NCBI GenBank assembly: GCA_032718475.1
Contig: JAUCBJ010005969.1
Span: forward strand, 16,116-80,115
Reading direction: 5' to 3'
DNA: 64,000 bases
From: Nemertoderma westbladi
Taxonomy: Eukaryota; Animalia; Xenacoelomorpha
The notes beneath the pieces are model-generated. The model saw only the letters and a program-made list of their open reading frames with translations, was not told where the DNA came from and ran no database searches. Shown here piece by piece: positions 1,461 to 37,400 of this stretch. The stretch's first letter is position 1. Each line of letters opens with the position of its first letter. A program made the translations under genes and the position numbers.

Positions 1461-4400
1461 GTAAGTTTACTATAACTACAATTAATTGTCTGCCATCTTA
1501 ATATTTCAGTTGTGTTCCTATTGTGGTGGCTACTTCCTGGCAGCAGAGGCGTAGCGAGGGCGGGGAGGGGGCGGGAGCGTTCCCCCGGCCGCACTCACCC
1601 AGAGGCGTAGCGAGGGCGGGGAGGGGGCGGGAGCGTTCCCCCGGCCGCACTCACCCAGAGGCGTAGCGAGGGCGGGGAGGGGGCGGGAGCGTTCCCCCGG
1701 CCGCACTCACCCAGAGGCGCCTGCCAGGGTTGCCATTTACCTGGAATAGTCAGGGAATTTCATTTTTTTCTTGAATTGCCAAGGAAATGTCAGGCAATTA
1801 TTGTAAAAATAGAACATATCAGTTAAAAGTCGGGGATCTTGATATATACAGGAGGTGTATCATTTATCACATGTGTCATAAAAGCGAAAATTCGGGGGGG
1901 TGTAGCGCTATCTATCTCATCTTCATTCCCCGGGCGCCAGAAGGGCTCGCTACACCTCTGCTTCAGGGATTTGCATCAGGAAGCCCAGGTTCGATCTCTA
2001 GATGGTGCCCATGGCGTGCTGCACAGCACTTTAAATGCTGCAGCCTAGCCCAACGGGGGTTTCACCCTTGAGTGGTTGATAAATGGGAACCATGGTAATT
2101 CGGAAAACATTGATCACTCTCCATTCCCGCTAGATCACCCCAAATAGGTTAAGGTCATTCCCCCTCGCATTTCCCCGACGAATGTTGATACAATCATGGT
2201 GATACAATCCCACCCCCCCCCCCCCCCCCCACACCCAGTCCGAATTTGAAAAAGGTCCGCTAAATCAAGACCAAGGTCCGAACAACGGGACGAAGGACCG
2301 TCACAATATAATGGCTTTGATAAGTTTTACTAATTCTCTAAGTAAATTGATTTTAAATAGTTTTGTTCAGCTCCGCATCAATATTATTAGTTATTATTTA
2401 ATTATCCGAACAAGAAGACACATGCTGTACATACATTGGCCAATCCACTTGGGTTGGTGTCTTTTAGGAGACGATTTAGGAAAGTCAATGGCCGACCACC
2501 ACGTTTCCTCTGTCTAACCGGTTGCCTCATGGCATTGGCCGACTAATCTCAACCGCAATGCCTGCAGTGTGTTACTGGGTTTTGACAATAATTATCTGTC
2601 ACTACCGAATTTTTACAATGACTCTTTGTTAAATAAATGGGCATTCTATTTTATGCCATGATCCCTGCGCAGCATCCTGGAATATGGACTATCAATAGTG
2701 TCTTCTACAGTAAGAGACCAACATGGACTACAATATGACAGTACATGCTATACTGCAGCCAGGGATATATTTACGTTCAGAAAATGTATGATTCCAGAAA
2801 TCTTAATAGCTTCATTAATGTAAAGTTTATTCATGGATATTTTAAAGGTATTCAACTGATCTCAGAATCCAAGATCCTATAGGTAGCCTACGTGACCAAC
2901 TCTGTAAGGATTATTGTACGCGCTTTTGAAGACCTTTAGCAGTTTAACCTGCCAAAATTTATATGTCTTTTGGTTTATAAATATACTTTAGAAGTTGACA
3001 AATATTTAATACCAATAAACACAACATTAGCAGAAGCCAGCCTAGTGCGCGTCCATTCACCCGCTGGATATACCCGGGGGGCTGGATTCTGAGGGCTTAG
3101 ATTATTATTGCAGTGTAAGCTTACTGTATTATTCGATTGATCGTTAATAAATAATTTCTGACTAATATTATTCACTTTCTGGAAATATTAACAGTTCCTT
3201 TAGGACGTGGCGCTCTATCTAAGTAAACAGAGATATGACTTATACTAATCACAACGGTAAGTCGGTAAGGCTTATGATTCACGTATGAGGCGCATTCTTT
3301 AGGAAATGCTTAGTTATCAGCCACAATCATGCACACTACCGGTAACACACAATACTGACCACTAATTTGCCGACCGTCAATGATTTTTATCATATATAAA
3401 GAGAACAGCAACGGACCAATGTAGTGCTTATCAAATAGCATTAAATTCACTACATACACAATAATATAAGTCGCAATCGCTATATATAACCCGTCTCTCT
3501 AACCTGTAGTGTATCAAGAAAATTGGGAAATTTGGGTTCTTTATAAATGTTCTCCAAATAATATTCAACCAACTAATACAAAATATGACAACAGTAAAAC
3601 ATTAAGACGGTAGGTCAAGATATGATATGACATGTTATGATATGTGATATATGATATGGACTGATAACAGTTATACGCTCTATAATTTAAGCCTACTAAT
3701 GTTTCTTCTAAAGTATGAAAACGAGTTGACTCTAGAGCCGGTGTTCCTGGCCTAGATAGCAACAACACAACAGTATGACAAAAACAGTAAGACTGAACAC
3801 TCCTAGTATGATCGGCCGAAAAGCTCCACATCGACAGAAAAAATCGCTCTGATTGGCTTAAGCTAAACAAAGAACCATGTGTCCAATGGCTGTTTCCATG
3901 TCAGCAACCAGCTGTTAGATGTCGTAATATGAATCATCACGGCTAAGCTGTGTAAGGTATTTGGTACATTGCGGGTTTTTTGCCTTACCATGTCCGCCAA
4001 AACACGTATATAGAGGAATGACTTTTATGTCCGTTAAAACACCTATAACGGTACCTTGCGGGCGAGGGGAATATATATATAGTTAGAGAGCCTTTTAGAG
4101 TATTCCAGCGCCTGGGGGGAAACTGGATTGCGAAGCAAAAGGGCCAGTTATATCCCACAGAAGCTTTTACACCGCTCCCAGAAAATGGGATTTGAGTCTA
4201 TAAAATATACAAAATCACAGTTTCTAATATACGTAAATACTCTAAACAGTTAGTCTTTCTTGCGCGGACGGCGTTTACGCAGTTTTTTAAAGCTAGCCCC
4301 AGAGTCCTTTTCTCTTTGGGGCGAGCCACTTTACAAGGAGGGCTATAACTCCTGGGTGAAGGGTGCAATATGATTGCATCAGAGGGTGTAGGATTATGGT

Positions 4401-7400
4401 CGGTGTATCCGCCAGTCGAAGTACCAGGTTGATTGACATCAACGTCAGGTGAGAGGGGTCTAACGGCTTTGAGAGCTCGTTTCAAGACAGCCGCTCTTAC
4501 GGGTCCCCTACGAGTGGTCTGAACGAGGGCTGTGGGTAGACCATAGGCAGTTAGAAACCTTCGGGGTTTAATGGTTCTTTCCAACTCGCGTTCGCGGGCT
4601 CGGTATTCGTAAGGCCGTCGATATACTTCCTGTAACTCGGGGTGTGAGTTAACAAACAAGTCTCCATAGTCCGGATCCTGACGGATATAATTGATTAAGT
4701 TATAGGAATGAAGGTCGCTAGGATTAACACTCCTGAGAAATTTACGCACGAATTTGGTGGAAATACATTCTCCGACGCGCTTCAGTAGCTCGTAACTTGA
4801 TATGCGTGATTTCTGTTCAACCGAAGCGAATAGATAAGGATGGAACGCATAAACTCCTTCGTAAGCGCGTCCGGGATAATAGCGATGGCGCGAATCACAG
4901 TGTAAATCAGCGTTCGCTTCCCAAGCTCGGATGTAACGTAGTGTGATCATTTCATCTACGCTTTCCAAATCGTGATTAAAAGGGCAATCGAAACTGGCAT
5001 GTCCCTTTAGTTGACAATGGTGACATTGAGTCATAAATTGAGGGCAAACCGCAAAGATATGCAAGTTATTGAGTCTGCAATATGCGCAATAAATTTCCAT
5101 AGTCGGTTGTTCTTGGAAATAGGAACAGCGGACGTTGGTGTCCATGGGCGTATCGTGGTCTCTCGATGCGCATAACTGACAACGTTGCCTAGAAACATAG
5201 TTGGCGTGTCGATAATCGTACGCAGTGAGACACTGTGGACCTTGATACCATTCTATGATGTAATCGTTGTCGCTGTTCCGGGGCGCGATAGGCTGAATCT
5301 CCTCAGATTCTAGGCATATTGGTTCGTCTTCCCAGTCTGTTACGAATATAATTTTCGTGATCTATTTTCGGTTTATCGTTACGACTCCGCTGGGTATGAT
5401 ATTTAAGTAGAACCATTTCCCTTTCGGTGTCTACATCGTCCGTATCATGTAAATCGATAGGATGGCCGGTAGTTAGGAAGTCCATATACGTACCATTACG
5501 ATGCGTATAGCGAGCGGTGAATTTTCGATAGTCCAATTCACGCGTAAGTTGCTCTTGGGACATCGGCGGTTCGATATAACGACCATTGTCCTCCGTAATG
5601 GTTGGATCGGCTTCACCGCGTATCAAGCTATCCACAAATGCTTGTAAAGGTAGAGTATATCGCTCCCTGACACCAAGATCATCTTCTATCAACTCCGTCA
5701 TATCTGTTATCTGAGTTTATTAATATTGTAATGAGTTTATGTTTAGGCGAGCGGGCGTCGCTGCCTACCTCTCTTCGCCCCGGACAGTGGGATTCTCAGC
5801 GCCGATGTATCGTCGTCGCGGTGTTTACGCCAACATGTAGCAACAGCACGACAACGACAACCGGCACAAGTCACTCCACTGTCCGTCCCAAAGGCTTGAA
5901 TCCACTTTAGGTTCTTTCTATAGGAGAGTTGGGCTACTTTCACAATTGCGACTAGCTACTGTAAACACACCTTAGCAGTAACATTCACCTACAAACGCAC
6001 AAATTCCACACAACTGTCACCAATTGTACACATACAGGCCATTTGTCCGTTAGTCAGTGCCTTCCAGAATGTCACGTTATTACTGTGTATCCTTGGATAC
6101 TAACAGTGTGCTATGTTCTCTATGCTATGCAATGGGACAAGCTTTCTATTGTTCTTTTAACTTGCTTCTAATTCTAGCGTGGGTGTTGCTATGGTGACAT
6201 TATGGAATGCTAGCGGTAGAATTAGGGTAATTCTCATGCATACAGATCTGGGATGCTATTTAATAATAATTCTTTAATTGTCAATATCCTCTTTATGCAT
6301 GATTTTATTAATTTTATCGGCTATTGACTATATGTTGGAGATTCTCGCACTCTAATACACTCAATAGGATGAATCTCCGCTCTCATGATCTATTAATTAA
6401 TGGAATTTTGGGAATGTTATAAATTGTACAAAATGACAATTTATGAAATTCATTTAAATATGAATTTAAATTTATTCCCGTGAATTTTATTATTTGATGT
6501 TAAAATTGACACAATTTGATTCCAGAGCAGGTCTGGGGACATAGGATCCTTAATTCTATGAAAATTGTCTTTTAAGAGTATCGGTAAGTGTTGCGATATC
6601 TTAATTGACTAGAAATTTTAAAGGATCTGAATTTTACAGATTTTAATAAATATTAAATTAAGATTTAAGATGGGCACCGATTTATTCCAGAACTTGTCTG
6701 GGGACGTTAACCACTGATTCTAGAATTTGTCTTTCAAGTATATCGGTGGGTGCCGCGATATCTTAATCGACTAGAATTACAGATGGTCAAAAAGTTTAAC
6801 AGATTTATTTGCGTTTTACGCTACTGTTATAGGGACATCACGCTACTATATGTATTATTATATATGGTATGAGAGCAATATCGCACGAAGCAATGTCAGT
6901 GTGAAGAGGCAAGTCGTTTCCAAGGTCTACCCAGAGCTTGGTTTAGCCGAGACACGAGGATCTGAACTTTGCATTCCTAATACTCTGCCTACCAATAATA
7001 CTTAAGTATAGTAGGAGCTTTATTGTACTTTAATAAGTACGGACATTTCATCTTACTGTAGTCACGTATTTATAATATGATACGGACAGTAAGGAAAGAG
7101 AAAAAATAATTATTTCTCGCCGTCGCACTAAATATATATTATAAGTAATTACGTACGTAATAAACACTAATATATTGCACTAATCTACTAAATAATCACT
7201 AAAAGAACATTCTACTAAATAAAATTAAAGAAAACGATTATAATAAAATTACATAATAATACATACATAAATATAAAATAAAAACAAATATAAAATGATA
7301 TAGTCACACGCCCACTCCATATGTTATTACGTTATGGAGTCCCTAGATATTTGTCGGATTAGGGAAGTGGTCGTAGGAAGAGTATCTTGCCTTCCATAGT

Positions 7401-10400
7401 TTCCGGACAGTTTTTGGTCTCTTTCCAGTAAACATAAACGACTAGCTGGGCGATTGAGTTGTTGTGTTACTTTCTCCGCTCCCTTGGCCTGTCTAAACTC
7501 CGCCGTGGTAAGATGAGGAGGCCATTCTTCTTCTTCTTTACTTAAGAAGTCGGATCCACCTAACCAGCCTGGAGTATCTATCAGTTCTTGAGGAGTTGCT
7601 CCTCTGGAAGCGATGTCGGCTGGATTAATCGTCCCAAGGCAATGTCTCCATTGATCTACATTGGAGTTAATATCGTCATTATCTGAGGAGTATGGTGTTC
7701 CCTCAGTTGGATCGTCCACATCACTGCTCTCCACTTCCCATTCCTTTACTTGGTATACCTGTTGTTGAGGTAATCTCTCTTTGAGAGTTCTACGGGAAGG
7801 GCCAGTAAAGTACCAACCTACTCTAGTTCTTACTGCATAGGTTTGTAATGGCTGCGGTTGAGCAGGCCGTTTCTCCAATGTCTCGAGCGCCTCATGCGCG
7901 TTTTGGCCGATGAGTATTTGCACTCCAGGATAATCTGTCTGGAATCGAGGTATCTTAAGATGTTGGATGCTCTCATCCTCGTCCCAATTATAAAGGTCTG
8001 CTTGGGTAGTAGCGAAGTTCTTTATAGCCACCATTTTTACCGACCTTATACCTTGTGCTCCTAATTTATCCTGGGGGGTGGACAACACACCTACATAGTA
8101 GTCTGCCGTTAGGGTAGATTTCCAAACCTGCATAATTCCTGACATATTCAATTTAGTCCGGAATTTGGGTTGTCCAGCAAAGAAATCTTCGGCTAGTTCT
8201 TGATCGATGAATGTTCCTGTGCTGCCGGAGTCAAGGAGGGCGTTCACTATGTAACTTTTGTTGGGACCATGAACTCTTACCTGCACTACAGGAAATTCTC
8301 TGATTCCTACGTTGGAAGTTGGAGCTTTCCAAGATGGTTGTCTGGCAAAAGTAGTTGGGGGGAACTCATTGTCGGTGTCCTTTTCATAAGTAAGTGCTCG
8401 ATACACTGAGGTATTTATTAGGTAACAGGATTCGTTGGCGTCGGAGAATTCGTCAGTATAGAATCCTTCCATCTCAGACTCTTGATCAGTGTCATTTACA
8501 TCACTGAATTGGACATGTAGTTCGGGCTCACTTACCTGACTCGGGTTGTCTCGTTCGAACTCACTGTGTAACAAGATGTGATGTTTCGCGCCACACTTTG
8601 CACACTTTACGTCGGAGTAACAGGTTCGCCGTTGGTGTCCTGATCTGAGGCAATTATAGCATAACCGCTTATTCCACAGGACTGTACGTCTGTCTACAAG
8701 GGATTTCTTTAGAAATTCAGCACACGCACTCAAACGGTGGGGCCCGTCGCACAGCGCACATTTTGGTTTGATGTTACTCACCTTACCTTGGGTAACGTTA
8801 TGCACTCTCGTTCTTTCTTCGGGCTTTCTTCCGTGAATTCTCTTAGGAGACATAGGAGGAGTTGTTGTTACCTGTTCTCTCCTGTCACTGGTTCGAGACT
8901 TGTATTTACTTACGTCTTTATAGGTCTTGTTGTCATAGTAAGATTTTGCTGTGTCTTTCCCGCTGTCCTCTTCTTGAGAAGCTTGGCTTTCGCCGTCGTC
9001 AGTATAACACACTGGTATTATCCTTCTCCTAGAAACGGGTTTCTCACTTACCTTATTTTCCGATGTTTTCTCTCTGGACTGCTTTATGAGTTGTAATTTT
9101 ACTTCACTATCTAAGAAGGACATGAGATCAGCCATGGTAGGGCTTCGTCGTTGCTGCTCATTCATATACAACACTTTCTTGTCCCAGCGTGTACATACTC
9201 CACCCTTTGGTAAAGTAGAGACTACTGCTCCAATAACCATGGAACTCTGATATTCATGAGACTTACCCAACCAGTCCAATTGTCTACAGATCTCCTGAAT
9301 CTCATCGGAAAACTCTATAATCCCGCTACTAAGGAAGTTTCGGGGGGCTACTAATTTTGCATACAAATACTTAGCTATGTTATCCTTGTTACCATACCTG
9401 ATGTTTAATGTATCCCAAACTTGTCTTAATCCTTCTGGATGTCCAATGAACTTTAACGCCATTAACTTGGGAGGTCCTTCCAAGCACTTGATGAGGAACC
9501 TAAGTTTCTCACCGTTAGATAGTACAGAGTTCTGTATGCTGTCTTTGTAATATTCATTGAAAGGTAACCGTTTCATCTCATCTCCATTGAATTTGACGAT
9601 CTCTCCCACTTTGACCGCTTGGCGGGCTTCTGTTCTAGCCATCTGACGCGTAAAGCTTTCTTGGGCCATCGTGTTATTTAATATCGAATTATCGGTATAT
9701 AAATTTCTCGGATCATTATCAGGTCTATAGGGAATATCATTAACAACAGGTTTATAATCACCCTTAATAGGGTTTGCTATAGGAGTTTCTACTTCACTAG
9801 CAGTATAGATGCGTGTAGGCTCCACACCTTGCGCATGTAATACTTCAGACCTAACAGGTTGACACAATGTTACTGGGGGTATTGGTATACCCTTTTGTAT
9901 ATTGACTAATTTGTCGCGTTCCAGCGCGATACTTTGCTGCACTTCTTGCAATTCTGCCCTACCTTCCCTTACTGTTCCCTTAAGTTGGTAGACAGTCTCC
10001 TGCATCTGTCCGAGCAGGAGATTCATCCCCCGTCGTCCCTCCTCTACCCACTCGACCGCCGAAGCGGGAGTCGCCAACATTGTAGTGGGCCGACGCGGGA
10101 CGACGGGAGACAAATCTTTGATTTCTCTCTCAGTGTCCAGAACAGGGATATTCGCATGGACTGTTCTACCGGGTACAGGCAGTGTAGTACTGTGTAACGG
10201 GAATTTAGAGTTAAGCTCTGGAAGTACAGGGGTCTCTAGCACAGAAGTGGCTTTGGGAACGACAGGCCCAATTATTTCAGGCTCATCAACTATGGTAGGG
10301 AGTCTTTTGACCTTAATAATTTGGTCTGTGGGTTCTGTACTACCTAAGTCTGTGCTAGCTAGTTGTCTTCTAACCGCTGGGGGCAAATCAGGCAATTTGT

Positions 10401-13400
10401 GACGGTGAGATGTTTTTCTACGCCTGCTTAGACGAGATCTATTTCCTCCGCCTTCAGGATCGGTGGTCTTGCCTTCCTCCGATGATGTGTATCCTTGGCG
10501 TTTGGGAGTAGATCGACTCATCATCTGCATTTGACTAGCAGTTAACTGTTTATTTATGCAGTCTTGCGTCTCTTGCAGATTTTCCAACTCCAGTTGGGTA
10601 GTCTCCTCAGACGCTCTCCGTTCTGCTTCTGCCACTGCCTTTGCCGCCATTGCCATTGCCGCTGCCGCCTTTCTTTCCACTTCTGCCATTGCCATTGCCG
10701 CTGCCTTTAGGTCCTCTATCCGTTTTTTCTTTACTTGTTCTTCTTGGACTCTAACGAGGCAGAGTTTTTCATCAAATTTAGCTTGGTTTGCAGCTAACAT
10801 TTCCGCATCGATTGCGTCCAACACAAGCTTGGTTCCTTCACTATTAGGGCGAAGTCCAGACAGTCGTCTCCTCAACTCTTCGTCTCCTAGGAATCGCTGA
10901 TAGTCTGACAGATAGATGTCAATGGCGTCTCTAGTTCGCGGTTTCTCTGCTGCTGTTAATTCGCTTTCCACTTCGCTTTCCACTTGAGAAGAAGTGGCGT
11001 TGGTTGATTCTTCATAGGTTGGCCGCTCATAATAAACCGTATCCGCCATCTTCGCTCCGCGTTCGGGCGTCCGCTCAGCAGTATCCGAACTACTGGAACT
11101 ATCGGGCCGCTGAGAACTAGGTTCTAGGCTAGGATGTTGCTGCTGTTTGACAGCTGCTTCTTGATCCCGCTTGACTTGGGCCCGAGTACCGATGATAGAC
11201 CTACGTTGTTCTACTAGCCTAGGGTCTGACACTACTACTGTAGGGATGGCCTTTTTTACAATAGTAGGTGACTTAGACTTGGGTCTAGGATGTTCTATAC
11301 TTGGATCTGGGTCACTGATCTTTTTAAGGCACTGTCTAACAGTCATTCTAACACTTTCTAAGAGACTATCCGACAGTGATTGGGTTGTGTCTGACATGTT
11401 TGTTTATACAATTGAATGCCTACTGCTATGATTACAGCTAAAGCAAGTCTAGCAATTCAGTATCACTGTTAGCCTAGTAATTAATTACCGATACTGCTAC
11501 TCAGTGTAGCGTGATATATATATAATATATTAGAATACCGGTATGCTTATAGTATATATATAAGTATTATTACAGACTAGATTTGTCACAGAGTACCGGT
11601 ATATAATTTTAGCACAAATATATATAAATATATAATAGGCCTATCGTGAATACCGGTATGCAGCTTACACTTATAGTATATATAAGTATAATTATGAACT
11701 AGAATTAATTACAGAATACCTGTATGATTTCAGCACAAATTTATAGAAATAAATATAATAAGCCTATGGTAAATACCGGTATGTCAATTATTTTAGAATA
11801 ATTGAATTTCTGAATATTTTAGGGTTACTTGGTTACTTTAACTTACTTTATTACCGTTATTTAAGCAGTAGTCCAACTGATATTGAGACCTAGTTGTTGT
11901 ATGGCAGGCCTACTATTTATAAATCGTTTGAGTTGATTTATAATATTTATATACCCGTTTAAAAGGGTTTTGTCAATATTTGAAATAAATGTTATTATTT
12001 CTGGGGGAGTCACTACACAGAAGCTGTACGCTCTCAGTGAAGTGCTACCTATGGGACACTAAAACAGATAATTATAATTTACCTAAGTTACTTAATACTA
12101 CAAATTACTTACGATACGGGTGAGATTAAATCTCTAATTAAACACAACAAAATATTACGTACGAAATTTTAGGGTAATTTTACAGGAAGTCTACAAACCA
12201 GCCTAACAAAGGGTTAGAATTCTGGTTATTACAACGGACAGGATACTATGGTATTTGAAAATAATAAGTAGTAGTAAATATATTGCACTGTCCAGATAGG
12301 AAAATACCACCGCCTGACGACCTATAGCCGTATCGCTATAGGTACTACGTTATGTATCACGGAGTGTTCCTACCTGGAAGTTAATTACCGCGGTCTACCA
12401 GAACCAACGTGCCTATTAACCACTTTACAACACAAATATACTGCCCACACACTAATTACCTTCGGAAAGCACTGTACACTAAACCCTAAATTAGGTACAA
12501 GTACTGGTACAACAAATAATCAGTAGTTAAATATACTTGAACAGTTAAAAGAACCACATCATCTGCTGGAGTGACCGAAGCACAAAGTCACCAGTCTTTT
12601 CCTACGCCAAGCAGCCCGTGTAGTACCGGGGTTAATTTAACTATAACGGTATGTGTAACAAACACAATTACTGTAGGAATAAACTTGGGGACATGAATGT
12701 TGCGAATAATCGCATAAACTCTGAATAATAAATATTACGCTACCCGTACAGAATACTCAAACAAAATACAAACCAAACGCTGGCAGACTACCACCAAGCC
12801 CAAATAAACTACAGTATGTGCAGATTCCAAAATGGTTAGTTAGTATGCGTTCTAACACGGTAGTACGACTTATTCTTTAAGAGGGGATTGACCTTACAGC
12901 TATGGCTGCCCCAACTTACTAACTGGCACTCTATCGGACAAACTCTACACACGCAGTAATCTCTCCAAACCCAACAACAATCCGACAACAGTCTGGCCTA
13001 CAATTATCTGAACAATCTGAGCAGACTTACACGTCTTCAGCTCTATATTAACTTACTAGGAAATAAAACTGACAGAAATAGACCTAAGTGAAATCCCAAT
13101 AAAAACCAGGCGTCCCCGATTTAATATCGAGACCTACCGGTATACAATAATCAAAATCGAATAATACTAATGTACTTATACTGGAAGTACCGGTTAGGAC
13201 AGTTGGGCCTACGGACCTACAGAAGTACCGGTTCTGACAGTTGGACCTACGGACCTACAGCAGTACCGGTTCTGGCAGTTGGGCCTACGGACCTACGACA
13301 GTACCGGTTCAGGTTTACCGGTCGACCGGTACTTTCAACTTTATTGCTTACTGCAATAAAGACAATAACTGTTATTGTACGCGCTTTTGAAGACCTTTAG

Positions 13401-16400
13401 CAGTTTAACCTGCCAAAATTTATATGTCTTTTGGTTTATAAATATACTTTAGAAGTTGACAAATATTTAATACCAATAAATACAACATTAGCAGAAGCCA
13501 GCCTAGTGCGCGTCCATTCACCCGCTGGATATACCCGGGGGGCTGGATTCTGAGGGCTTAGATTATTATTGCAGTGTAAGCTTACTGTATTATTCGATTG
13601 ATCGTTAATAAATAATTTCTGACTAATATTATTCACTTTCTGGAAATATTAACAGTTCCTTTAGGACGTGGCGCTCTATCTAAGTAAACAGAGATATGAC
13701 TTATACTAATCACAACGGTAAGTCGGTAAGGCTTATGATTCACGTATGAGGCGCATTCTTTAGGAAATGCTTAGTTATCAGCCACAATCATGCACACTAC
13801 CGGTAACACACAATACTGACCACTAATTTGCCGACCGTCAATGATTTTTATCATATATAAAGAGAACAGCAACGGACCAATGTAGTGCTTATCAAATAGC
13901 ATTAAATTCACTACATACACAATAATATAAGTCGCAATCGCTATTTATAACCCGTCTCTCTAACCTGTAGTGTATCAAGAAAATTGGGAAATTTGGGTTC
14001 TTTATAAATGTTCTCCAAATAATATTCAACCAACTAATACAAAATATGACAACAGTAAAACATTAAGACGGTAGGTCAAGATATGATATGACATGTTATG
14101 ATATGTGATATATGATATGGACTGATAACAGTTATACGCTCTATAATTTAAGCCTACTAATGTTTCTTCTAAAGTATGAAAACGAGTTGACTCTAGAGCC
14201 GGTGTTCCTGGCCTAGATAGCAACAACACAACAGTATGACATTAACAGTAAGACTGAACACTCCTACTGTAGTATGATCGGCCGAAAAGCTCCACATCGA
14301 CAGAAAAAATCGCTCTGATTGGCTTAAGCTAAACAAAGAACCATGTGTCCAATGGCTGTTTCCATGTCAGCAACCAGCTGTTAGATGTCGTAATATGAAT
14401 CATCACGGCTAAGCTGTGTAAGGTATTTGGTACATTGCGGGTTTTTTGCCTTACCATGTCCGCCAAAACACGTATATAGAGGAATGACTTTTATGTCCGT
14501 TAAAACACCTATAACGGTACCTTGCGGGCGAGGGGAATATATATATAGTTAGAGAGCCTTTTAGAGTATTCCAGCGCCTGGGGGGAGACTGGATTGCGAA
14601 GCAAAAGGGCCAGTTATATCCCACAGAAGCTTTTACAATTATATAATTAGTTGAATAAATACAAATAGATAAGGGTCTTCTCCAACGGTAAAAAATAATT
14701 GAATTAATTTAAGTCGATTTGTAATTCCTTAGTGTAAATAGTTAGAAATTGTTAAACCACCGATTTATAATAGTGTAAATAGATATAAATTTTTTATATC
14801 TCCATATTTTTATGATTTTTCGCTATACCCGTCTAATAATATATGCAATTATATAGTACCACCTATTTTGTGCTCGCCCCACTATGTGCCTTATCCTAAT
14901 ACATACTTTAGAGGTACCGGTAACTTTGTTATTTGCTGTTGTGCAGTGTGGTTTTACAGTTCGGTTTAGTGTTTCAGTTATTTATATAGAGTCTGAAGAA
15001 AGGCCTAGGCCAGAAAGTACTCACTTAAATTAATTCAATTATTTTTTACCGTTGGGGAAGACCCTTATATATTTGTATTTATTTAACTTATGATGGACCC
15101 CCCTAACAGCAGCATGTCGCTTTGTTTCAAGATTTAATTATATAATTAGAAATTTCTCCTTGCTCTATACAATTTACACAAGGAGAATGATGGCCAATAA
15201 CGTGATGGGGTGAATGTGAAATCTGATTTACGGTAGAGACCATTGTAATCAAGTTATTTCTGAGTATAATTATTATTACATAGACCCTACAGTTAGATTC
15301 TTGGAAATTATCTGTAGGCTACAGATAATTTCCAAGAATCTAACCTTTTTTGGTTAGGTGATTATTGATTTCGTTGATTAATGTTTGCTTTAGCCATTCA
15401 CGGACGACATTGCCTTTGTTTTCGGCCAATCCTGGTCGCAATTAGATAGATAGGGAAGAGGACAGTAGTGGCAGAGTTAGTTTTCAGCAAAGCAATTGGC
15501 GCAGAGTTCACGATTGGAGTACCTATACTAGTATTCCTATAAGAGCTGTCTTTCTTGCCATCCCTGTCCAGACAAGATTCGCAGTGCCAACATTTTTCCA
15601 AGAACGAGTTCTGCATCAATTTTTGACGGGCGATTTGTTTATAAACGGACGGTCAGTCAGGTCGGTTTTGGTTATTTTGTTTTGTTATTTTTCATAAAGT
15701 TAGTACAAGGAGCACTTTTTATCCTCACGGATAATAAAGTCCCCCTTTCCCGGATCCCAATATTTTGATACCGAGGTCTTTTAATGCTTTCACCGGTCAG
15801 TTGGATAGTTCCCCTGTCGGAAGAGTTTACTTTGTATATTCACATCACTGCCCTACCTGGTACAAATATAGGCTGGAATATTTACTTAATAACTTACTTA
15901 ACAAAACCGATTCGTCCGTGACCCGTTTAAAACTGCATAGAATACCACGTTGCAGATCCGGAAAAGGTTTTTACTTGGAATAGTACTAGCAGCGATAGGC
16001 TGCGCAAAAATCCTATTACAACGGCCGAAGAGCAAGAATTAACTTAAAAAATAGTTAGCGCAAGTTGAATTATTTTACACATCAAACGATTGAACACACG
16101 ACGGTCGATGGCCTACTGACGTTATGGGGAATCCAAGTTTACAGTGAGAGTTTGTGGAATGTACAAATAGACCAACATTGGACGCTGCTTTTTCTAGACT
16201 GCTGAGGAGTCTTTGCGCTCTACCCAATGTTAATGTGATAAAGAATTTCCTGATCATTGCGGACCTTTTTCGTGGAATGATAAACAACTAAAATGTGTGT
16301 TGCCTTTGGCCCCTAAATACTTTTTCTTATATAAAGTACAGCCCCACACACCCAGAACGAGAAAAAATATTGCCCTTGATGGTCACTTTTGGACCTTCGT

Positions 16401-19400
16401 CTCATTCCGACCTTCGTCTCATCCCGACCTTCATCTCATACCGACCATCGTCTCATCCCGACCTTCATCTCATACCGACCTTCGTCTCATCCCGACCTTC
16501 ATATCATACCGACCATCGTCTCATCCCGACCTTCATATCATACCGACCTTCGTCTCATCCCGACCTTCATCTCATACCGACCTTCGTCTCATCCCGACCT
16601 TCATATCATACCGACCATCGTCTCATCCCGACCTTCATATCATACCGACCTTCGTCTCATCCCGACCTTCATCTCATACCGACCTTCGTCTCATCTCGAC
16701 CTTCATCTCATACCGACCATCGTCTCATCCCGACCTTCATCTCATACCGACCATCGTCTCATCCCGGCCTTTCATCTCATACCGACCTTCGTCTCATCCC
16801 GACCTTCATCTCATACCGACCATCGTCTCATCCCGACCTTCGTCTCATCCCGACCTTCGTCTCATCCCGACCTTCGTCTCATCCCGACCTTCGTCTCATC
16901 CCGACCTTCGTCTCATCCCGACCTTCATATCATACCGACCATGGTCTCATCCCGACCTTCATCTCATACCGACCTTCGTCTCATCCCGACCTTCATCTCA
17001 TACCGACCATCGTCTCATCCCGACCTTCGTCTCATCCCGACCTTCATCTTATCCCGACCTTCATCTCATACCGACCATCGTCTCATCCCGACCTTCATCT
17101 CATACCGACCTTCGTCTCATCCCGACCTTCATCTCATACCGACCTTCGTCTCATCCCGACCTTCATCTCATACCGACCATCGTTTCATCCCGACCTTCGT
17201 CTCATCCCGACCTTCGTCTCATCCCGACCTTCATCTCATCCCGGCCTTCATCTCATACCGACCTTCGTCTCATCCCGACCTTCATCTCATACCGACCTTC
17301 ATCTCATCCCGGCCTTCGTCTCATCCCGACCTTCGTCTCATCCCGACCTTCGTCTCATCCCGACCTTCATATCATACCGACCATGGTCTCATCCCGACCT
17401 TCATATCATACCGACCATGGTCTCATCCCGACCTTCATCTCATACCGACCTTCGTCTCATCCCGACCTTCATCTCATACCGACCATCGTCTCATCCCGAC
17501 CTTCGTCTCATCCCGACCTTCATCTTATCCCGACCTTCATATCATACCGACCGTCGTCTCATCCCGACCTTCGTCTCATCCCGACCTTCATCTCATCCCG
17601 ACCTTCATCTCATCCCGGCCTTCATCTCATACCGACCTTCGTCTCATCCCGACCTTCATCTCATCCCGACCTTCATATCATACCGACCATGGTCTCATCC
17701 CGACCTTCATCTCATACCGACCTTCGTCTCATCCCGATCTTCATCTCATACCGACCATCGTTTCATCCCGACCTTCGTCTCATCCCGACCTTCATATCAT
17801 ACCGACCATCGTCTCATCCCGACCTTCGTCTCATCCCGACCTTCGTCTCATCCCGACCTTCGTCTCATCCTGACCTTCGTCTCATCCCGATCTTCGTCTC
17901 TTCCCGACCTTCGTCTGATCCCGACCTTCGTCTCTTCCCGACCTTCATATCATACCGACCTTCGTCTCATCCCGACCTTCGTCTCATCCGGACCTTCGTC
18001 TCATCCCGACCTTCGTCTCATCACGACCTTCGTCTCATCCGGACCTTCGTCTCATCCCGACCTTCATATCATACCGACCTTCGTCTCATCCCGACCTTCG
18101 TCTCATCCCGACCTTCGTCTCATCACGACCTTCGTCTCATCCGGACCTTCGTCTCATCCCGACCTTCGTCTCATCCCGACCTTCGTCTCATCCCGACCTT
18201 CGTCTCATCCTGACCTTCGTCTCATCCCGATCTTCGTCTCTTCCCGACCTTCGTCTGATCCCGACCTTCGTCTCTTCCCGACCTTCATATCATACCGACC
18301 TTCGTCTCATCCCGACCTTCGTCTCATCCGGACCTTCGTCTCATCCCGATCTTCGTCTCTTCCCGACCTTCATATCATACCGACCTTCGTCTCATCCCGA
18401 CCTTCGTCTCATCCGGACCTTCGTCTCATCCCGATCTTCATATCATACCGACCTTCGTCTCATCCCGACCTTCGTCTCATCCGGACCTTCGTCTCATCCC
18501 GATCTTCGTCTCTTCCCGACCTTCATATCATACCGACCTTCGTCTCATCCCGACCTTCGTCTCATCCGGACCTTCGTCTCATCCCGATCTTCATATCATA
18601 CCGACCTTCGTCTCATCCCGACCTTCGTCTCATCCGGACCTTCGTCTCATCCCGATCTTCATATCATACCGACCTTCGTCTCATCCGGACCTTCGTCTCA
18701 TCCCGACCTTCGTCTCATCCCGACCTTCGTCTCATCCCGACCTTCGTCTCATCCTGACCTTCGTCTCATCCCGATCTTCGTCTCTTCCCGACCTTCGTCT
18801 GATCCCGACCTTCGTCTCTTCCCGACCTTCATATCATACCGACCTTCGTCTCATCCCGACCTTCGTCTCATCCGGACCTTCGTCTCATCCCGATCTTCGT
18901 CTCTTCCCGACCTTCATATCATACCGACCTTCGTCTCATCCCGACCTTCGTCTCATCCGGACCTTCGTCTCATCCCGATCTTCATATCATACCGACCTTC
19001 GTCTCATCCCGACCTTCGTCTCATCCGGACCTTCGTCTCATCCCGATCTTCGTCTCTTCCCGACCTTCATATCATACCGACCTTCGTCTCATCCCGACCT
19101 TCGTCTCATCCGGACCTTCGTCTCATCCCGATCTTCATATCATACCGACCTTCGTCTCATCCCGACCTTCGTCTCATCCGGACCTTCGTCTCATCCCGAT
19201 CTTACTTTTACTTTGTTTTTACTTGGAATAGTTCTAGCAGCGATAGGCTGCGCAAAAATCCTATTACAACGGCCGAAGAGCAAGAATTAACTTAAAAATA
19301 GTTAGCGCAAGTTTAATTATTTTACACATCAAACGATTGAACACACGACGGTCGATGGCCTACTGACGTTATGGGGAATCCAAGTTTACAGTGAGAGTTT

Positions 19401-22400
19401 GTGGAATGTACAAATAGACCAACATTGGACGCTGCTTTTTCTAGACTGCTGAGGAGTCTTTGCGCTCTACCCTATGTTAATGTGATAAAGAATTTCCTGA
19501 TCATTGCGGACCTTTTTCGTGGAATGATAAACAACTAAAATGTTTGTTGCCTTTGGCCCCTAAATACTTTTTCTTATATAAAGTACAGCCCCACACACCC
19601 AGAACGAGAAAAAATATTGCCCTTGATGGTCACTTTTGGACCTTCGTCTCATCCCGACCTTCATATCATACCGACCATCGTCTCATCCCGACCTTCGTCT
19701 CATTCCGACCTTCGTCTCATCCCGACCTTCATATCATACCGACCATCGTCTCATCCCGACCTTCATATCATACCGACCTTCGTCTCATCCCGACCTTCAT
19801 CTCATACCGACCTTCGTCTCATCCCGACCTTCATCTCATACCGACCATCGTCTCATCCCGACCTTCATATCATACCGACCTTCGTCTCATCCCGACCTTC
19901 ATCTCATACCGACCTTCGTCTCATCCCGACCTTCATCTCATACCGACCTTCGTCTCATCCCGACCTTCATCTCATACCGACCATCGTCTCATCCCGACCT
20001 TCATATCATACCGACCTTCGTCTCATCCCGACCTTCATCTCATACCGACCATCGTCTCATCCCGACCTTCATCTCATACCGACCATCGTATCATCCCGAC
20101 CTTCATCTCATACCGACCTTCGTCTCATCCCGACCTTCATCTCATACCGACCATCGTCTCATCCCGACCTTCATCTCATACCGACCATCGTCTCATCCCG
20201 ACCTTCATCTCATACCGACCTTCGTCTCATCCCGACCTTCATCTCATACCGACCATCGTCTCATCCCGACCTTCGTCTCATCCCGACCTTCGTCTCATCC
20301 CGACCTTCGTCTCATCCCGACCTTCGTCTCATCCCGACCTTCATATCATACCGACCATGGTCTCATCCCGACCTTCATCTCATACCGACCTTCGTCTCAT
20401 CCCGACCTTCATCTCATACCGACCATCGTCTCATCCCGACCTTCGTCTCATCCCGACCTTCATCTTATCCCGACCTTCATCTCATAGCGACCTTCGTCTC
20501 ATCCCGACCTTCATCTCATACCGACCATCGTCTCATCCCGACCTTCGTCTCATCCCGACCTTCGTCTCATCCCGACCTTCATCTTATCCCGGCCTTCATC
20601 TCATACCGACCTTCGTCTCATCCCGACCTTCATCTCATACCGACCTTCATCTCATCCCGGCCTTCGTCTCATCCCGACCTTCGTCTCATCCCGACCTTCG
20701 TCTCATCCCGACCTTCATATCATACCGACCATGGTCTCATCCCGACCTTCATATCATACCGACCATGGTCTCATCCCGACCTTCATCTCATACCGACCTT
20801 CGTCTCATCCCGACCTTCATCTCATACCGACCATCGTCTCATCCCGACCTTCGTCTAATCCCGACCTTCATCTTATCCCGACCTTCATATCATACCGACC
20901 TTCGTCTCATACCGACCTTCGTCTCATCCCGACCTTCGTCTCATCCCGACCTTCATCTCATCCCGGCCTTCATCTCATACCGACCTTCGTCTCATCCCGA
21001 TCTTCATCTCATCCCGACCTTCATATCATACCGACCATGGTCTCATCCCGACCTTCATCTCATACCGACCTTCGTCTCATCCCGATCTTCATCTCATACC
21101 GACCATCGTTTCATAACGACCTTCGTCTCATCCCGACCTTCATCTTATCCCGACCTTCATATCATACCGACCATCGTCTCATCCCGACCTTCGTCTCATC
21201 CCGACCTTCGTCTCATCCCGACCTTCATCTCATACCGACCTTCGTCTCATCCCGACCATCGTTTCATCCAGACCTTAGTCTCATCCCGACCTTCGTCTCA
21301 TCCTGACCTTCGTCTCATCCCGATCTTCGTCTCTTCCCGACCTTCGTCTGATCCCGACCTTCGTCTCTTCCCGACCTTCATATCATACCGACCTTCGTCT
21401 CATCCCGACCTTCGTCTCATCCGGACCTTCGTCTCATCCCGACCTTCGTCTCATCACGACCTTCGTCTCATCCGGACCTTCGTCTCATCCCGATCTTCGT
21501 CTCATCCCGACCTTCGTCTCATCACGACCTTCGTCTCATCCGGACCTTCGTCTCATCCCGACCTTCATCTCATACCGACCTTCGTCTCATCCCGACCATC
21601 GTTTCATCCAGACCTTAGTCTCATCCCGACCTTCGTCTCATCCTGACCTTCGTCTCATCCCGATCTTCGTCTCTTCCCGATCTTCGTCTGATCCCGACCT
21701 TCGTCTCTTCCCGACCTTCATATCATACCGACCTTCGTCTCATCCTGACCTTCGTCTCATCCGGACCTTCGTCTCATCCCGACCTTCGTCTCATCACGAC
21801 CTTCATCTCATACCGACCTTTGTCTCATCCCGACCTTCATCTCATACCGACCATCGTCTCATCCCGAGCTTCGTCTCATCCCGACCTTCATCTAATCCCG
21901 ACCTTCATATCATACCGACTATCCCGACCTTCGTCTCATCCCGACCTTCGTTTCATCCGGACCTTCGTCTCATCCCGACCTTCGCCTCATCCCGACCTTC
22001 GTCTCACCCCGACCTTCGTCTCATCCCGACCTTCGTTTCATCCGGACCTTCGTCTCATCCCGACATTCGTCTCATCCTGACCTTCGTCTCATCCCGACCT
22101 TCGTCTCATCCCGACCTTCATCTCATCCCGGCCTTCATCTCATACCGACCTTCGTCTCATACCGACCTTCGTCTCATCCCGATCTTCATCTCATACCGAC
22201 CTTCATCTCATACCGACCATGGTCTCATCCCGACCTTCATCTCATACCGACCTTCGTCTCATCCCGATCTTCATCTCATACCGACCATCGTTTCATCCCG
22301 ACCTTCGTCTCATCCCGACCTTCATCTTATCCCGACCTTCATATCATACCGACCATCGTCTCATCTCGACCTTCGTCTCATCCCGACCTTCGTCTCATCC

Positions 22401-34400: not shown

Positions 34401-37400
34401 TATAATAGTATGTGCAGTAAGGCCTACAGTATGTCCTGCAGTCTGCATGTGCCCTTCCGAACCGAAGTTTATTCTTCGCGAATCGCGAATCTCCCCGCGA
34501 CTACCGTACTCTCGATCGGCAGCTATATCACGTCGGGAAGTTTCCCTTCGATCCCCTATCCTGCTCTCGTCTTCGTATCGGTACGTCCTGTACCCCTCTC
34601 CTGGTGTGCGGTGCGTTTCTCCGGGGCGACGGCAATCTCCCGAAGTTCGACCCCACTGACTCCCTAACTCCATCTCTACTAGCGACGGCTCGCTATCCGT
34701 CCTCGCTCTCCGGTTGCTCCTAGCAACGACTCTTCTATTATCTTCCTTTCTTCTCTCTTCGACCTCTCGGTTAAACTCTGCTAATCTTCTTCTATCTTCG
34801 ACCTCTCTATTATACTCTACTAATCTTCACCTATCTTCGACCTCTCTATTAAACTCTACTAATCTTCTCTCTTCTAACTGGGCTCGACGTTCCGTCGCCC
34901 GCCCTCTCGCGACGTCAACCTGTCTCTCTCTGCTCGATCGCACGCCGCTGGGGATACTCGCAATCCCCCTATTACTCTCCGTCGCCGGGTGTTGCGGTTT
35001 ACCTAATTCGGCCCGCGCATTATCCGCTGACGCCTGTGGGACACTCCCTGCCCCCCCTCTGTCGCTACTAATCCCTCGCGGTGGGGTGCCCGTAGCCCCC
35101 CCCCCACCCGCCACTTCTAACTTCGCTATCTCTTACTACACTTCTGCGTCCCTCTTGTCGGACACTCTCTACCCCCTTTCTCTCGCCACTAATCTTCTGT
35201 GGTGGGGCGCCCGTAGCCCCCCCCCCCACCCGCCACTTCTAACTTCAATATCTCTTACTTCGTCTCTACACCCCTCTCTAGTCGACACACTGTCTCTACT
35301 GCGGCCGGGTCTATTCACCCCCGCCTCTCTCTCTACTACTGCGTGACCTACCAGGCCCACCTCGGGTTGGCTCAACCGCGCCACTTCCTGCCTACTAACT
35401 ACGTGGCCTACCAGGCCGCCGTCGGGTTGGCGCAACCCTGCCACTTCCTGCCTACTAACTACGTGGCCTACCAGGCCGCCGTCGGGTTGGCGCAACCCTG
35501 CCACTTCCTGCCTACTAACTACGTGGCCTACCAGGCCGCCGTCGGGTTGGCGCAACCCCGCCACTTCCTGCCTACTAACTACTACGTGGCCTACCAGGCC
35601 GCCGTCTGCCGGGCTATACACGTCTGACGCGTTCATATTAATAGCACCATTCCCAATATTATTTGTTAAATCAATTAAATTATTAGAATTTGAAACGGGA
35701 TTATTATTTAAATTATTTAAGTTAGAATTATTATTATTTTCAAAATTTAAATTGCTATTCGAATTATTTGAATTATTTTGATTATTCTGAATATTTGAAT
35801 TAATATTATTATTTGAATTTAAACTTAAATTACTACTACCGGGTAAAATATTTCCTGTAATAAAGGGATTAGGGTTATTTACTACGGTACTATTAATACA
35901 AACATTTCCTAACGTACTACTACTACCCCCCTCGCCCGTACGGTTGCTGTACGTACTGTAAGTGTACCGCACGCTCTGTTCTCTTGCCTCACGCTCTTCG
36001 CGTTCACTCTCTTGCTCCTTCCCTCTCCCCATTATCCGGTCTAATTCTTTCACCCTTAATTTATATGCCAGGCGTTCACTCTCTCGCACCCGTCTTTCTT
36101 TTGCGGAGGATGTAGCAGACTTATCGGTTGCGACGGACTTCCGCCGCCCCTCCGTCCTACTAACTTTCCCCCGTTTTCCGGGGTCCTCGCTGACCGACGA
36201 GACCGAATCCTCGGAGCTAACCTCGGATTCGCCCTCGTGCGGTCCCGCCCAACCCACTAACTTAACTTCCCTGGCATCGACTAAGTATGGCCCTATGTAC
36301 ACTACACCAGGCCCCATACCCCTACGTTCCCATAGCCCAAACAGTTCGAAGGCAACCCCTCTCGCTCTCTCCTCGGCCAGTTCTCCCTGCCCAGAACGCA
36401 CTAGGTAATCAAAGTATCTGTTCGACTCACCTAGTCGTCTCCTCAACTTCACCTGGTCTATCTCAGCCCCTCCTCTAGCTTCCTTCAGTTGTTCCCGGGT
36501 CGCGGCGTAGGCTCGTCGAAGTCGATCAGAAACCCCGACATCCTCGTCGCCGACCTCTCCTCTCTCCCTCCGGGTTCGGCGTCGTACCGTCGGCTCCACC
36601 GTTGCCGTTCCGGTGGGCCGTTCGTCGCCCTCGGTCTGTGGCTGACCGGCGACATCGGCATATCGACCGCCGCCCTGTGTCGACTCGTCTCTCTCCTCCC
36701 CCGTCTCGCTCTCTCCTCTACTCGACTCGCTCTCTCGCTGTAGACGACCCCCCACATCTTGGTTCGCCAGGTTGCTCGTTATCGACGTGGCGTCAACCGG
36801 CGTCGACGTGGTCGGCGTAGCATCGACTGGCGTCGTGGGTTCGTATCGTCTCGCCGTGGCCTCGCGGATCGTTAGATCGTCGTCCGGGGTCCGCGGCGGT
36901 GTCGTTCCTTTCTCTCGACTCATCTCGCCTTTGGTAGCTGGCAGCCACAGTCTGTCAGTTGGTTAGATCTAGTTCTATCACTGTCAGACTGTTAGGGCAG
37001 CTGCTAGGATTCTATCTCTGTCAGGGCAGCTGGGCGGATCTAGTTCTGTCACTGTGACGGGATCTACGGATCCCGGTTTATCCGTTGGGTTTTCTATCCA
37101 CGCGTCCCCGCCGTGTGTGAAAGGTAAAAGAGTTCTGATGTTGGGTAATATGTATAAAGGTATAATAGTCTGACAGTTGATATAGTATAGTATGACACAA
37201 CAGGTAATATATAATGGCGGTAGCGGACGGTGACAGAAGTCCCCGTTCCACCCTACTGATCTGACTGAGTAAACTGAATGAATGATTACAGGTTACTGGT
37301 TATATTGCACGGTGGCCTTATTGCTACTCAATCGATGCCTTTCCCCCCTCTGATTGGTTGATACCCCTGTTGGCACCCTTTGGAGTGTTTCCCTTCACTC

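Follow-up and report, generated by a model that had tools for sequence, protein, structure and literature searches.

Self-complementary primer-binding sites in a non-autonomous BEL/Pao element of Nemertoderma westbladi and in its distant relatives suggest priming without a tRNA

Structure and identity of element 1

The window, by which we mean the whole 64-kb stretch of DNA analysed, carries an LTR retrotransposon, element 1 (14637-2915), which like all features described here lies on the minus strand. Its 5′ LTR (13376..14637, 1262 bp, with TG...CA ends) and 3′ LTR (2915..4171, 1257 bp) are 99.2% identical, and the LTR ends are set by TG...CA, by the 5-bp target-site duplication ATAAT on both flanks (14638..14642 and 2910-2914) and by the polypurine tract that adjoins the 3′ LTR (4172..4181). 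The first four letters of the duplication are also those with which the primer-binding site (PBS) starts, and because these four are held in common, self-BLAST overshoots the LTR end by 4 nt. A gag-protease ORF (7327..11397) contains DUF1759 (E 9e-10 in a domain search) and ends in a 46-aa piece resembling the C-terminus of RNase H; tblastn matches span gag-PR, and PF05380 is present in 12 of 12 longer homologues. Two overlapping Cys/His-rich ORFs of 137 and 387 aa follow towards the 3′ end (4198..5716), with a weak zinc knuckle (E 0.02) and no entry for the 3′ ORF in Atlas. Both RT and integrase are absent from element 1, the RNase H-like piece being their sole remnant, a point missing from the first-pass annotation.

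By its sequence, element 1 is a young, defective and non-autonomous derivative of BEL/Pao. It has the gag (DUF1759) and protease of that group along with the TG...CA LTRs, polypurine tract and duplication, and it lacks the RT-RNase H-integrase order and any RT from which a tree could be drawn. Its gag and protease are only 20-35% alike to those of the relatives and an RT is lacking, so we do not place it in their clade.

The primer-binding position and its complement in the LTR

The 5′ LTR end is adjoined directly by ATAACAGTTAT (13375-13365), an 11-nt primer-binding position without TGG, and one variant of the family returns to the sequence of the window precisely at 13365. The nearest TGG, with which a tRNA-type PBS would start, lies 267 nt past the 5′ LTR. 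Within the 64-kb window the exact complement of the PBS occurs at two places only, the predicted self-primer in the 5′ LTR (14125..14135, LTR position 503-513) and its copy in the 3′ LTR (3664..3674), and the match is 11 nt exactly, with no extension beyond. The first-pass annotation had claimed that a tRNA PBS is lacking and that the 11 nt after the 5′ LTR are an exact complement of the element's own LTR, with the caveat of an AT-rich and quasi-palindromic 11-mer; we recover the same coordinates, and the caveat is just, the 11-mer being 82% A+T and one base short of self-complementary. The PBS-primer duplex has an energy of -10.1 kcal/mol, within the range of the relatives described below (-9.5 to -17.1). 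For an extension of the match by splicing, the best result in element 1 is 10 nt, joining the acceptor at 13965 to a donor of poor quality (GTTATC at 14129), and no joint skipping this stretch is among the family-contig joints listed.

A match of this kind might arise by chance, aided by the near-palindrome or by two Myb-like protein-binding motifs, the true PBS of a defective element having decayed. The non-autonomous state of element 1, the low pairing probability predicted for its RNA and the Myb-like hexamer in both sites (13 such hexamers in 2238 nt) would fit such an origin, but the hexamer covers 6 of the 11 letters only, and dinucleotide shuffles of the LTR, which keep its composition, yield an 11-nt complement at offset 0 in 6 of 3000 cases (8/3000 at offsets 0-5 and 33/3000 at offsets 0-20, using the LTR string without its first T). 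Among interior positions of element 1, 5 of 9194 have such a complement, the PBS included. Furthermore, the likeness of the LTRs and the intact duplication imply that the PBS worked recently.

Contigs of the element 1 family from sequencing runs (substitutions listed: 40 of 157 rows and 40 of 46) place both 11-mers at the border of conserved sequence. An abundant variant in run X3 diverges from the very first base past the PBS; retention of the PBS beside a replaced flank again speaks against chance. This variant also swaps out the right arm of a longer palindrome around the PBS, and the palindrome was rejected as a dimer signal. In the LTR, the 11-mer forms the 3′ edge of a conserved block (14124..14165), and no substitution at 14124-14175 is among those listed (40 of 46). 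A hypervariable stretch (14094..14123), variable at at least 19 of 30 places, starts 2 nt past the predicted primer end, and at least three joints rejoin at 14123 or 14124. The comparison of family members suggested by the first-pass annotation therefore upholds conservation up to the edges of both 11-mers, and gives no covarying change of PBS and LTR complement among the rows listed (40 of 157 and 40 of 46).

The window holds a second element, element 2, with LTRs at 37053-37581 and 30246-30774 and the duplication ATAGA. Its primer-binding position (37044..37052, 9 nt) is likewise without TGG and has a 9-nt complement in its own LTR (37230..37238), a match found in 3 of 3000 shuffles.

Distant relatives of element 1

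Relatives were drawn from the 80 loci that matched a single query best, and are thus not a fair sample of BEL/Pao. The nine with a defined LTR end are distinct families, and a tRNA site is present in none of them. Eight of the nine have an 11-15-nt self-complement at offsets 0-4, six across GTAAG/GTACG...YAG introns and two contiguous, whereas the controls give 2/110 for cross pairs and 4/1100 for interior 40-mers. The ninth has 11 nt across an intron after correction of its LTR end, bringing the count to nine of nine, seven of them across LTR introns. Between primer end and LTR end lie 93-210 nt. With strict splice sites an 11-nt complement is found in 8 of 44 further loci (controls 8/352), and a blind scan with neither LTR ends nor a splice-site filter is weak (22/49 against 35/147), its rows L012, L044, L060 and L075 being invalid owing to a slicing error. 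One locus (L053) is without exactly the intron of relative L042, leaving its complement contiguous; as read from these sequences, one related family has lost the LTR intron precisely. The letters of the complement differ between the relatives, and chance, which was already disfavoured, becomes a very improbable source of the match in element 1.

In both PBSs of the window the first seven letters are similar to the complement of the anticodon loop of tRNA-Asn and tRNA-Asp. If a host small RNA such as a tRNA fragment were the primer, with the LTR match incidental, this would have a parallel in the half-tRNA priming known in copia lineages (PMC6317226), but the likeness to the anticodon loops is 6-7 nt long as against 9-11 nt to the own LTR, and the PBSs of the relatives are all different, each tracking its own LTR, a pattern for which a handful of tRNA halves could not account. 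We hold this reading to be very improbable. Priming by the 3′ end of a mature tRNA can be ruled out, since every one of the 189 ends given in the PMC13524379 supplement terminates in CCA and no TGG is nearby. ARAGORN finds no tRNA genes in the window, and viral contigs contain no relatives, with ten 16-nt matches that show no further likeness to the window.

Transcription start and folding of the RNA

The part of the earlier proposal specific to Tf1, in which transcription would begin at 14135 or slightly upstream of it, appears doubtful, because merely 4-9 nt of the complement precede the intron in the seven relatives with an LTR intron, and because the site lies 124-167 nt downstream of the box in three of the four relatives with an upstream TATA-like box. 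These motifs suggest that the primer is probably internal to R. A possible intron upstream of the 11-mer in element 1 (14169..14454, TG|GTAAGG ... pyrimidine tract TAG|) is indicated by its motifs only, and the conserved block begins just past its acceptor. As a TATA box, TTAAATTA at 14151 was rejected, since an insertion splits the motif in ~11-12% of depth. Run X4, conceivably of RNA, gives no coverage of 14026-14196, to which we attach no weight.

The pairing may also be real with the 11-mer standing in U3 or the promoter, in which case either the RNA's 3′ LTR copy or the dimer partner would supply the primer, or the duplex would be structural only. The sequence TATAAC overlaps the 11-mer, with TCA ~30 nt downstream, strict TATA-like boxes lie downstream at LTR positions 632 and 689, and R plus U5 would otherwise be at least 760 nt long, whereas in the relatives the primer end stands 93-210 nt from the LTR end. 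Yet the start expected from the overlapping TATAAC lands in the hypervariable stretch, both downstream boxes are lost in family variants (contigs end loose before 13947 and after 14005, in three runs in each case), and the single strict box upstream of the 11-mer (LTR positions 91-95) matches the placement of the relatives' boxes (88-202). The relatives' site, moreover, is formed by splicing and must therefore be transcribed. We consider this alternative unlikely.

Two stems are predicted to flank the primer duplex. The first, of 14 bp with a 2-nt bulge, would pair an LTR arm (13566..13581) with a leader arm (13346..13359), and variant contigs from run X3, compared by eye, replace an A-U pair of this stem by G-C and gain a further pair, changes that would be compensatory if both variant arms belong to the same copies. 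The second, predicted only, would join 13508..13513 to the LTR end (13379-13384). The two stems have predicted probabilities of 0.38 and 0.46 in RNA from 14135 and of 0.00 in RNA from 14260. Under nested folding, a model that cannot hold a three-duplex pseudoknot, the primer duplex of element 1 has a probability of only 0.00-0.08, and imposing it costs 1.5-15 kcal/mol; for element 2 the probability is 0.01-0.26.

A model for self-priming

We propose that element 1 quite probably primes reverse transcription with a piece of its own RNA in place of a tRNA, the PBS being the complement of the conserved 11-mer of the LTR. The 11-mer would be transcribed from the 5′ LTR, probably within R and ~100 nt or more from the cap, and would then pair with the PBS, which the two predicted flanking stems would present in a manner comparable to the three-duplex structure of Tf1. 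With RT, RNase H and integrase supplied in trans, cleavage by RNase H from the RT of a helper element would release the 3′ end of the 11-mer (14125|14124), from which minus-strand DNA would be primed through U5. Most relatives would instead form their primer at the exon-exon junction of the LTR intron, and element 1 would represent the contiguous state, the same state having apparently arisen by precise intron loss in one related family.

Since element 1 and nine distant relatives all have a PBS that matches their own LTR, it is likely that the BEL/Pao group to which they belong self-primes. The earlier suggestion of a self-priming BEL/Pao lineage gains from conservation in the family, from element 2 and from eight or nine of the nine relatives, and the trait spans a wide clade and is not peculiar to this lineage. 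On balance we favour the wider view that a large BEL/Pao branch has swapped tRNA priming for an internal self-primer, mostly made by splicing, such that splicing would license reverse transcription, with element 1 as a very abundant non-autonomous family in the contiguous state. If true, all three LTR superfamilies self-prime, a point relevant to the question which of the two, tRNA priming or self-priming, is the older, and such elements would escape control via tRNA supply and tRNA fragments. Reverse transcription would be tied to splicing, and RNase H would have to cut an internal RNA duplex. It would also be clear why such elements are missed or downgraded by annotation tools that depend on a tRNA site. 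Finally, the predictions are base-exact, and natural RNA and cDNA suffice to read them.

Comparison with known systems

To our knowledge, self-priming has been demonstrated for Tf1 only, with predictions extending to related chromoviruses and to a single copia lineage of plants; we found no published account of it in BEL/Pao. Element 1 resembles the Belpaoviridae of the ICTV in its DUF1759 gag, zinc-knuckle region, protease, RNase H end motif and TG...CA LTRs. The ICTV profile gives BEL/Pao an 18-nt PBS for tRNA-Arg or tRNA-Gly and tRNA-primed replication (PMC8742986), in agreement with the first-pass statement that these elements are generally described as tRNA-primed, and a PBS of that type is absent from elements 1 and 2 and from the nine relatives. 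Primer, PBS and tRNA go unmentioned in the main text of PMC3118150, as do PBS and tRNA in PMC554778.

In the TAR lineage of Ty1/copia (Houba, Osr-1), self-priming was predicted from a PBS-LTR complement of at least 10 nt, according to part of PMC6317226; element 1 exceeds this length and element 2, with 9 nt, falls short of it. TAR is a plant copia lineage, and the same part of that paper does not mention a splice-junction primer. Tf1 and Tf2 of Schizosaccharomyces pombe, the Tf1/sushi group, and also Tj1, Tosmo and Tcn1 are Ty3/gypsy chromoviruses, whereas element 1 belongs to another superfamily, has proteins of BEL/Pao type and is without RT of its own. As in Tf1, a tRNA site is absent and ~11 nt directly after the LTR are complementary to the element's own LTR. 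For Tf1, two flanking stems and a three-duplex 'pretzel' are described in bioRxiv 10.1101/2022.12.06.519325. The primer of Tf1 is the first 11 nt of its RNA, freed at its 3′ end by RNase H cleavage of the RNA duplex, whereas the motifs of the relatives suggest a site internal to the transcript.

Element 1 carries a primer-binding position complementary to its own LTR

The first-pass annotation held that the primer-binding position (PBS) of the BEL/Pao retrotransposon element 1 has no tRNA site and is an exact 11-nt complement of the element's own LTR, and the coordinates, shuffles and distance to the nearest TGG agree with this. Element 1 runs from 14637 to 2915 on the minus strand, flanked on both sides by the 5-bp target duplication ATAAT; its LTRs of 1262 bp (5′) and 1257 bp (3′) are 99.2% identical, start with TG and end with CA, and a purine tract directly adjoins the 3′ LTR. 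The 11 nt directly after the 5′ LTR (13375-13365) have their exact complement, the LTR 11-mer, at 14135-14125 and 3674-3664. Dinucleotide shuffles of the LTR yielded an 11-nt complement at offset 0 in 6 of 3000 cases and at offsets 0-5 in 8 of 3000, and 5 of 9194 interior positions, the PBS included, have such an LTR complement. Coincidence, or a Myb-like motif, is a very unlikely explanation of the match; the complement is a real, conserved feature. The first TGG lies 267 nt downstream of the 5′ LTR and, as all 189 tRNA ends tabulated in the supplement of PMC13524379 terminate in CCA, this PBS offers no site for the 3′ end of a mature tRNA. Priming by a tRNA fragment is the least probable of the alternatives.

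The long ORF (11397-7327) contains DUF1759 and a weak aspartyl protease match. Aligned to 12 full-length BEL/Pao proteins it matches over gag and protease and then in a 46-aa segment at the end of RNase H, with RT and integrase absent. Judged by its sequence, element 1 is young, non-autonomous and helper-dependent. Its untranslated leader of ~2 kb (11398-13364, minus) has 38-nt tandem units near the PBS and a 13-nt stretch that is another complement of the LTR. The leader also has, at 13351, a GTAAGC donor that is retained in the variant from sequencing run X3 and could give spliced RNA for the Cys/His-rich 3′ ORFs (4198-5716, minus).

Both 11-mers border conserved sequence

Part of element 1 is present in seven of the eight sequencing runs listed; contigs were aligned to 13000-14700 and to 13930-14210. 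The abundant X3 variant (depth 8226) diverges from the window as far as the base adjoining the PBS and rejoins it exactly at 13365. In the 40 of 46 substitution entries listed for contigs on 13930-14210, the interval 14094-14123 is substituted at no fewer than 19 of its 30 positions and the interval 14124-14175 nowhere; at least three joints, from three runs, rejoin the window at 14123 or 14124. Each 11-mer therefore marks an edge of conserved sequence. Insertions at 14138 and 14147 fall outside the LTR 11-mer (among the 12 of 40 indel entries listed), and no covarying change of PBS and LTR 11-mer occurs among the family variants listed.

Folding of 13620-13320 (z only -1.6) places the PBS between two predicted stems, one joining LTR 13581-13566 to leader 13359-13346 and the other joining 13513-13508 to the LTR end. 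A comparison by eye of two X3 variant contigs, each holding one arm, suggests that the LTR-leader stem stays paired, with an A-U pair replaced by G-C and one pair gained. PBS-flanking stems are also known in tRNA-primed retroelements, so these stems are no proof of self-priming. As predicted, their arrangement would correspond to the three-duplex structure of Tf1 (bioRxiv 10.1101/2022.12.06.519325). Nested folding, a model in which primer duplex and leader stem cannot coexist, speaks against it: in element 1 the primer duplex forms with a probability of 0.00-0.08, and imposing it carries a penalty of 1.5 kcal/mol for an RNA starting at 14135 and of 8-13 for a start at 14170 or 14260 (37 C).

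Distant relatives and a probable intron within the predicted primer

Scanning metagenome contigs gave 596 matching stretches, of which 523 were relatives; the best 80 were taken, a set biased towards one query, and 58 were examined, the 22 omitted being mostly short contigs or lacking upstream room. In nine of the 58 loci the LTR end is present in both copies. The 13 nt that follow the LTR are free of TGG in all nine, and eight have an own-LTR complement of 11-15 nt at offsets 0-4, two contiguous and six interrupted by an intron whose donor is GTAAG or GTACG and whose YAG acceptor is pyrimidine-rich (11-nt controls: 2/110 cross pairs, 4/1100 interior 40-mers). The ninth, L033, gives 11 nt across an intron after a post hoc 10-nt shift of its LTR end. 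Where they align at all, DNA identity among the nine does not exceed 66%, and their PBS letters all differ. For loci lacking a defined LTR end, a blind scan was weak (22/49 versus 35/147 controls), and with strict splice sites, set post hoc, it gave 8/44 versus 8/352 controls. The 18 signal-bearing loci are dispersed over a tree of 78 placed loci (RT-RNase H identity 45-100%). Of the 11 elements whose end is defined (the window PBSs and L015-L081), 10 begin the paired part of the PBS with GT or AT, a possible cleavage preference. Element 1 is only 20-35% like the relatives over gag and protease and has no RT, so its membership in their clade is unsupported.

Relatives L042 and L053 are 90% identical, and the L042 intron is missing exactly from L053, leaving a contiguous 11-nt complement. 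This is evidence at the genomic level that splicing removes the intron, that the RNA carries the site and that intron loss can give the contiguous state. For element 1, an 11-mer lying in U3, or a purely structural duplex, is unlikely. Just 4-9 nt of the complement stand before the intron in the seven relatives with a spliced site; a usual first exon would be longer, and the primer is thus probably internal to R. Four relatives have a TATA-like box upstream of the site, at distances of 133, 124, 167 and 31 nt, and the same pattern finds none upstream in the other five of the nine. In L081 the box is 31 nt upstream of the primer site and, if a promoter, would leave a first exon of only 5 nt.

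Strict TATA-like boxes in the element 1 LTR stand at positions 91-95, 632, 689 and further downstream, those at 632 and 689 being lost in family variants. By motifs, a start near 14515 with an intron from 14454 to 14169 would place the site ~95 nt from the cap, and the conserved block begins just after that acceptor. A strong splice acceptor at 13965 (minus), within the LTR, is followed by four letters that repeat letters within the 11-mer; the spliced alternative through it is 10 nt, over a poor donor at 14129, and the family is divergent upstream of 13990. This acceptor may be left over from a primer intron.

Element 2 and other features of the window

Element 2 (37581-30246, minus; LTRs of 529 bp, 99.8% identical; duplication ATAGA) is a second young non-autonomous BEL/Pao element, with DUF1759 present, the gag region split over two ORFs and pol missing. 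Its PBS (37044..37052) has no TGG and a 9-nt complement in its own LTR (3/3000 shuffles). A hairpin directly precedes the LTR end, an LTR-leader stem spans 10 bp, and a cluster of TCAGT-like initiator motifs lies 20-40 nt upstream of the 9-nt LTR site.

Elsewhere, a 450-bp element with 72-nt inverted ends (14643-15094) abuts the element 1 target duplication, and further small elements with inverted ends occupy 24041-24325 and 60330-60771. Tandem arrays at 16240-23700, 49566-52287 and 1-1139 have units of 17, ~31 and ~68 bp. A RIG-I/Dicer-like helicase host gene with C2H2 zinc fingers (53131-58916, minus, three long ORFs) has its closest matches in hemichordates, a brachiopod and molluscs at 36-39%, which suggests that the host is a marine invertebrate. 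An immunoglobulin I-set ORF lies at 42997-45692, together with a broken piece of RT that carries DUF6451.

A model for priming and its relation to known systems

We propose a model, drawn from sequence, that is likely to describe priming of element 1. The LTR 11-mer of the element RNA would anneal to the PBS, helper-supplied RNase H would cleave at 14125|14124, and the 3′ end released at 14125 would prime minus-strand DNA. Strong-stop DNA would then end in the variable stretch just past the predicted cut, where strand transfer would take place.

A literature search found no paper on self-priming in BEL/Pao, with Repbase reports, GyDB pages, subscription journals and most supplements, which may mention it, outside its reach; passages of PMC3601003, PMC5443660, PMC8220671, PMC3587641 and PMC13524379 do not mention it. 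Tf1 uses the 11 bases at its start as primer, after cleavage by RNase H (PMC7175516, PMC4600332, PMC5341516), and for Tcn1 and TAR copia self-priming has been predicted (PMC6317226). The first-pass proposal of Tf1-like self-priming in BEL/Pao holds as a conserved likeness to Tf1/sushi elements by the sequence criteria of self-priming; it does not extend to Tf1/sushi membership, nor probably to a primer at the RNA's very start. Belpaoviridae are tRNA-primed in the ICTV profile (PMC8742986), and it is from this priming of the described BEL/Pao elements that the element 1 PBS departs.
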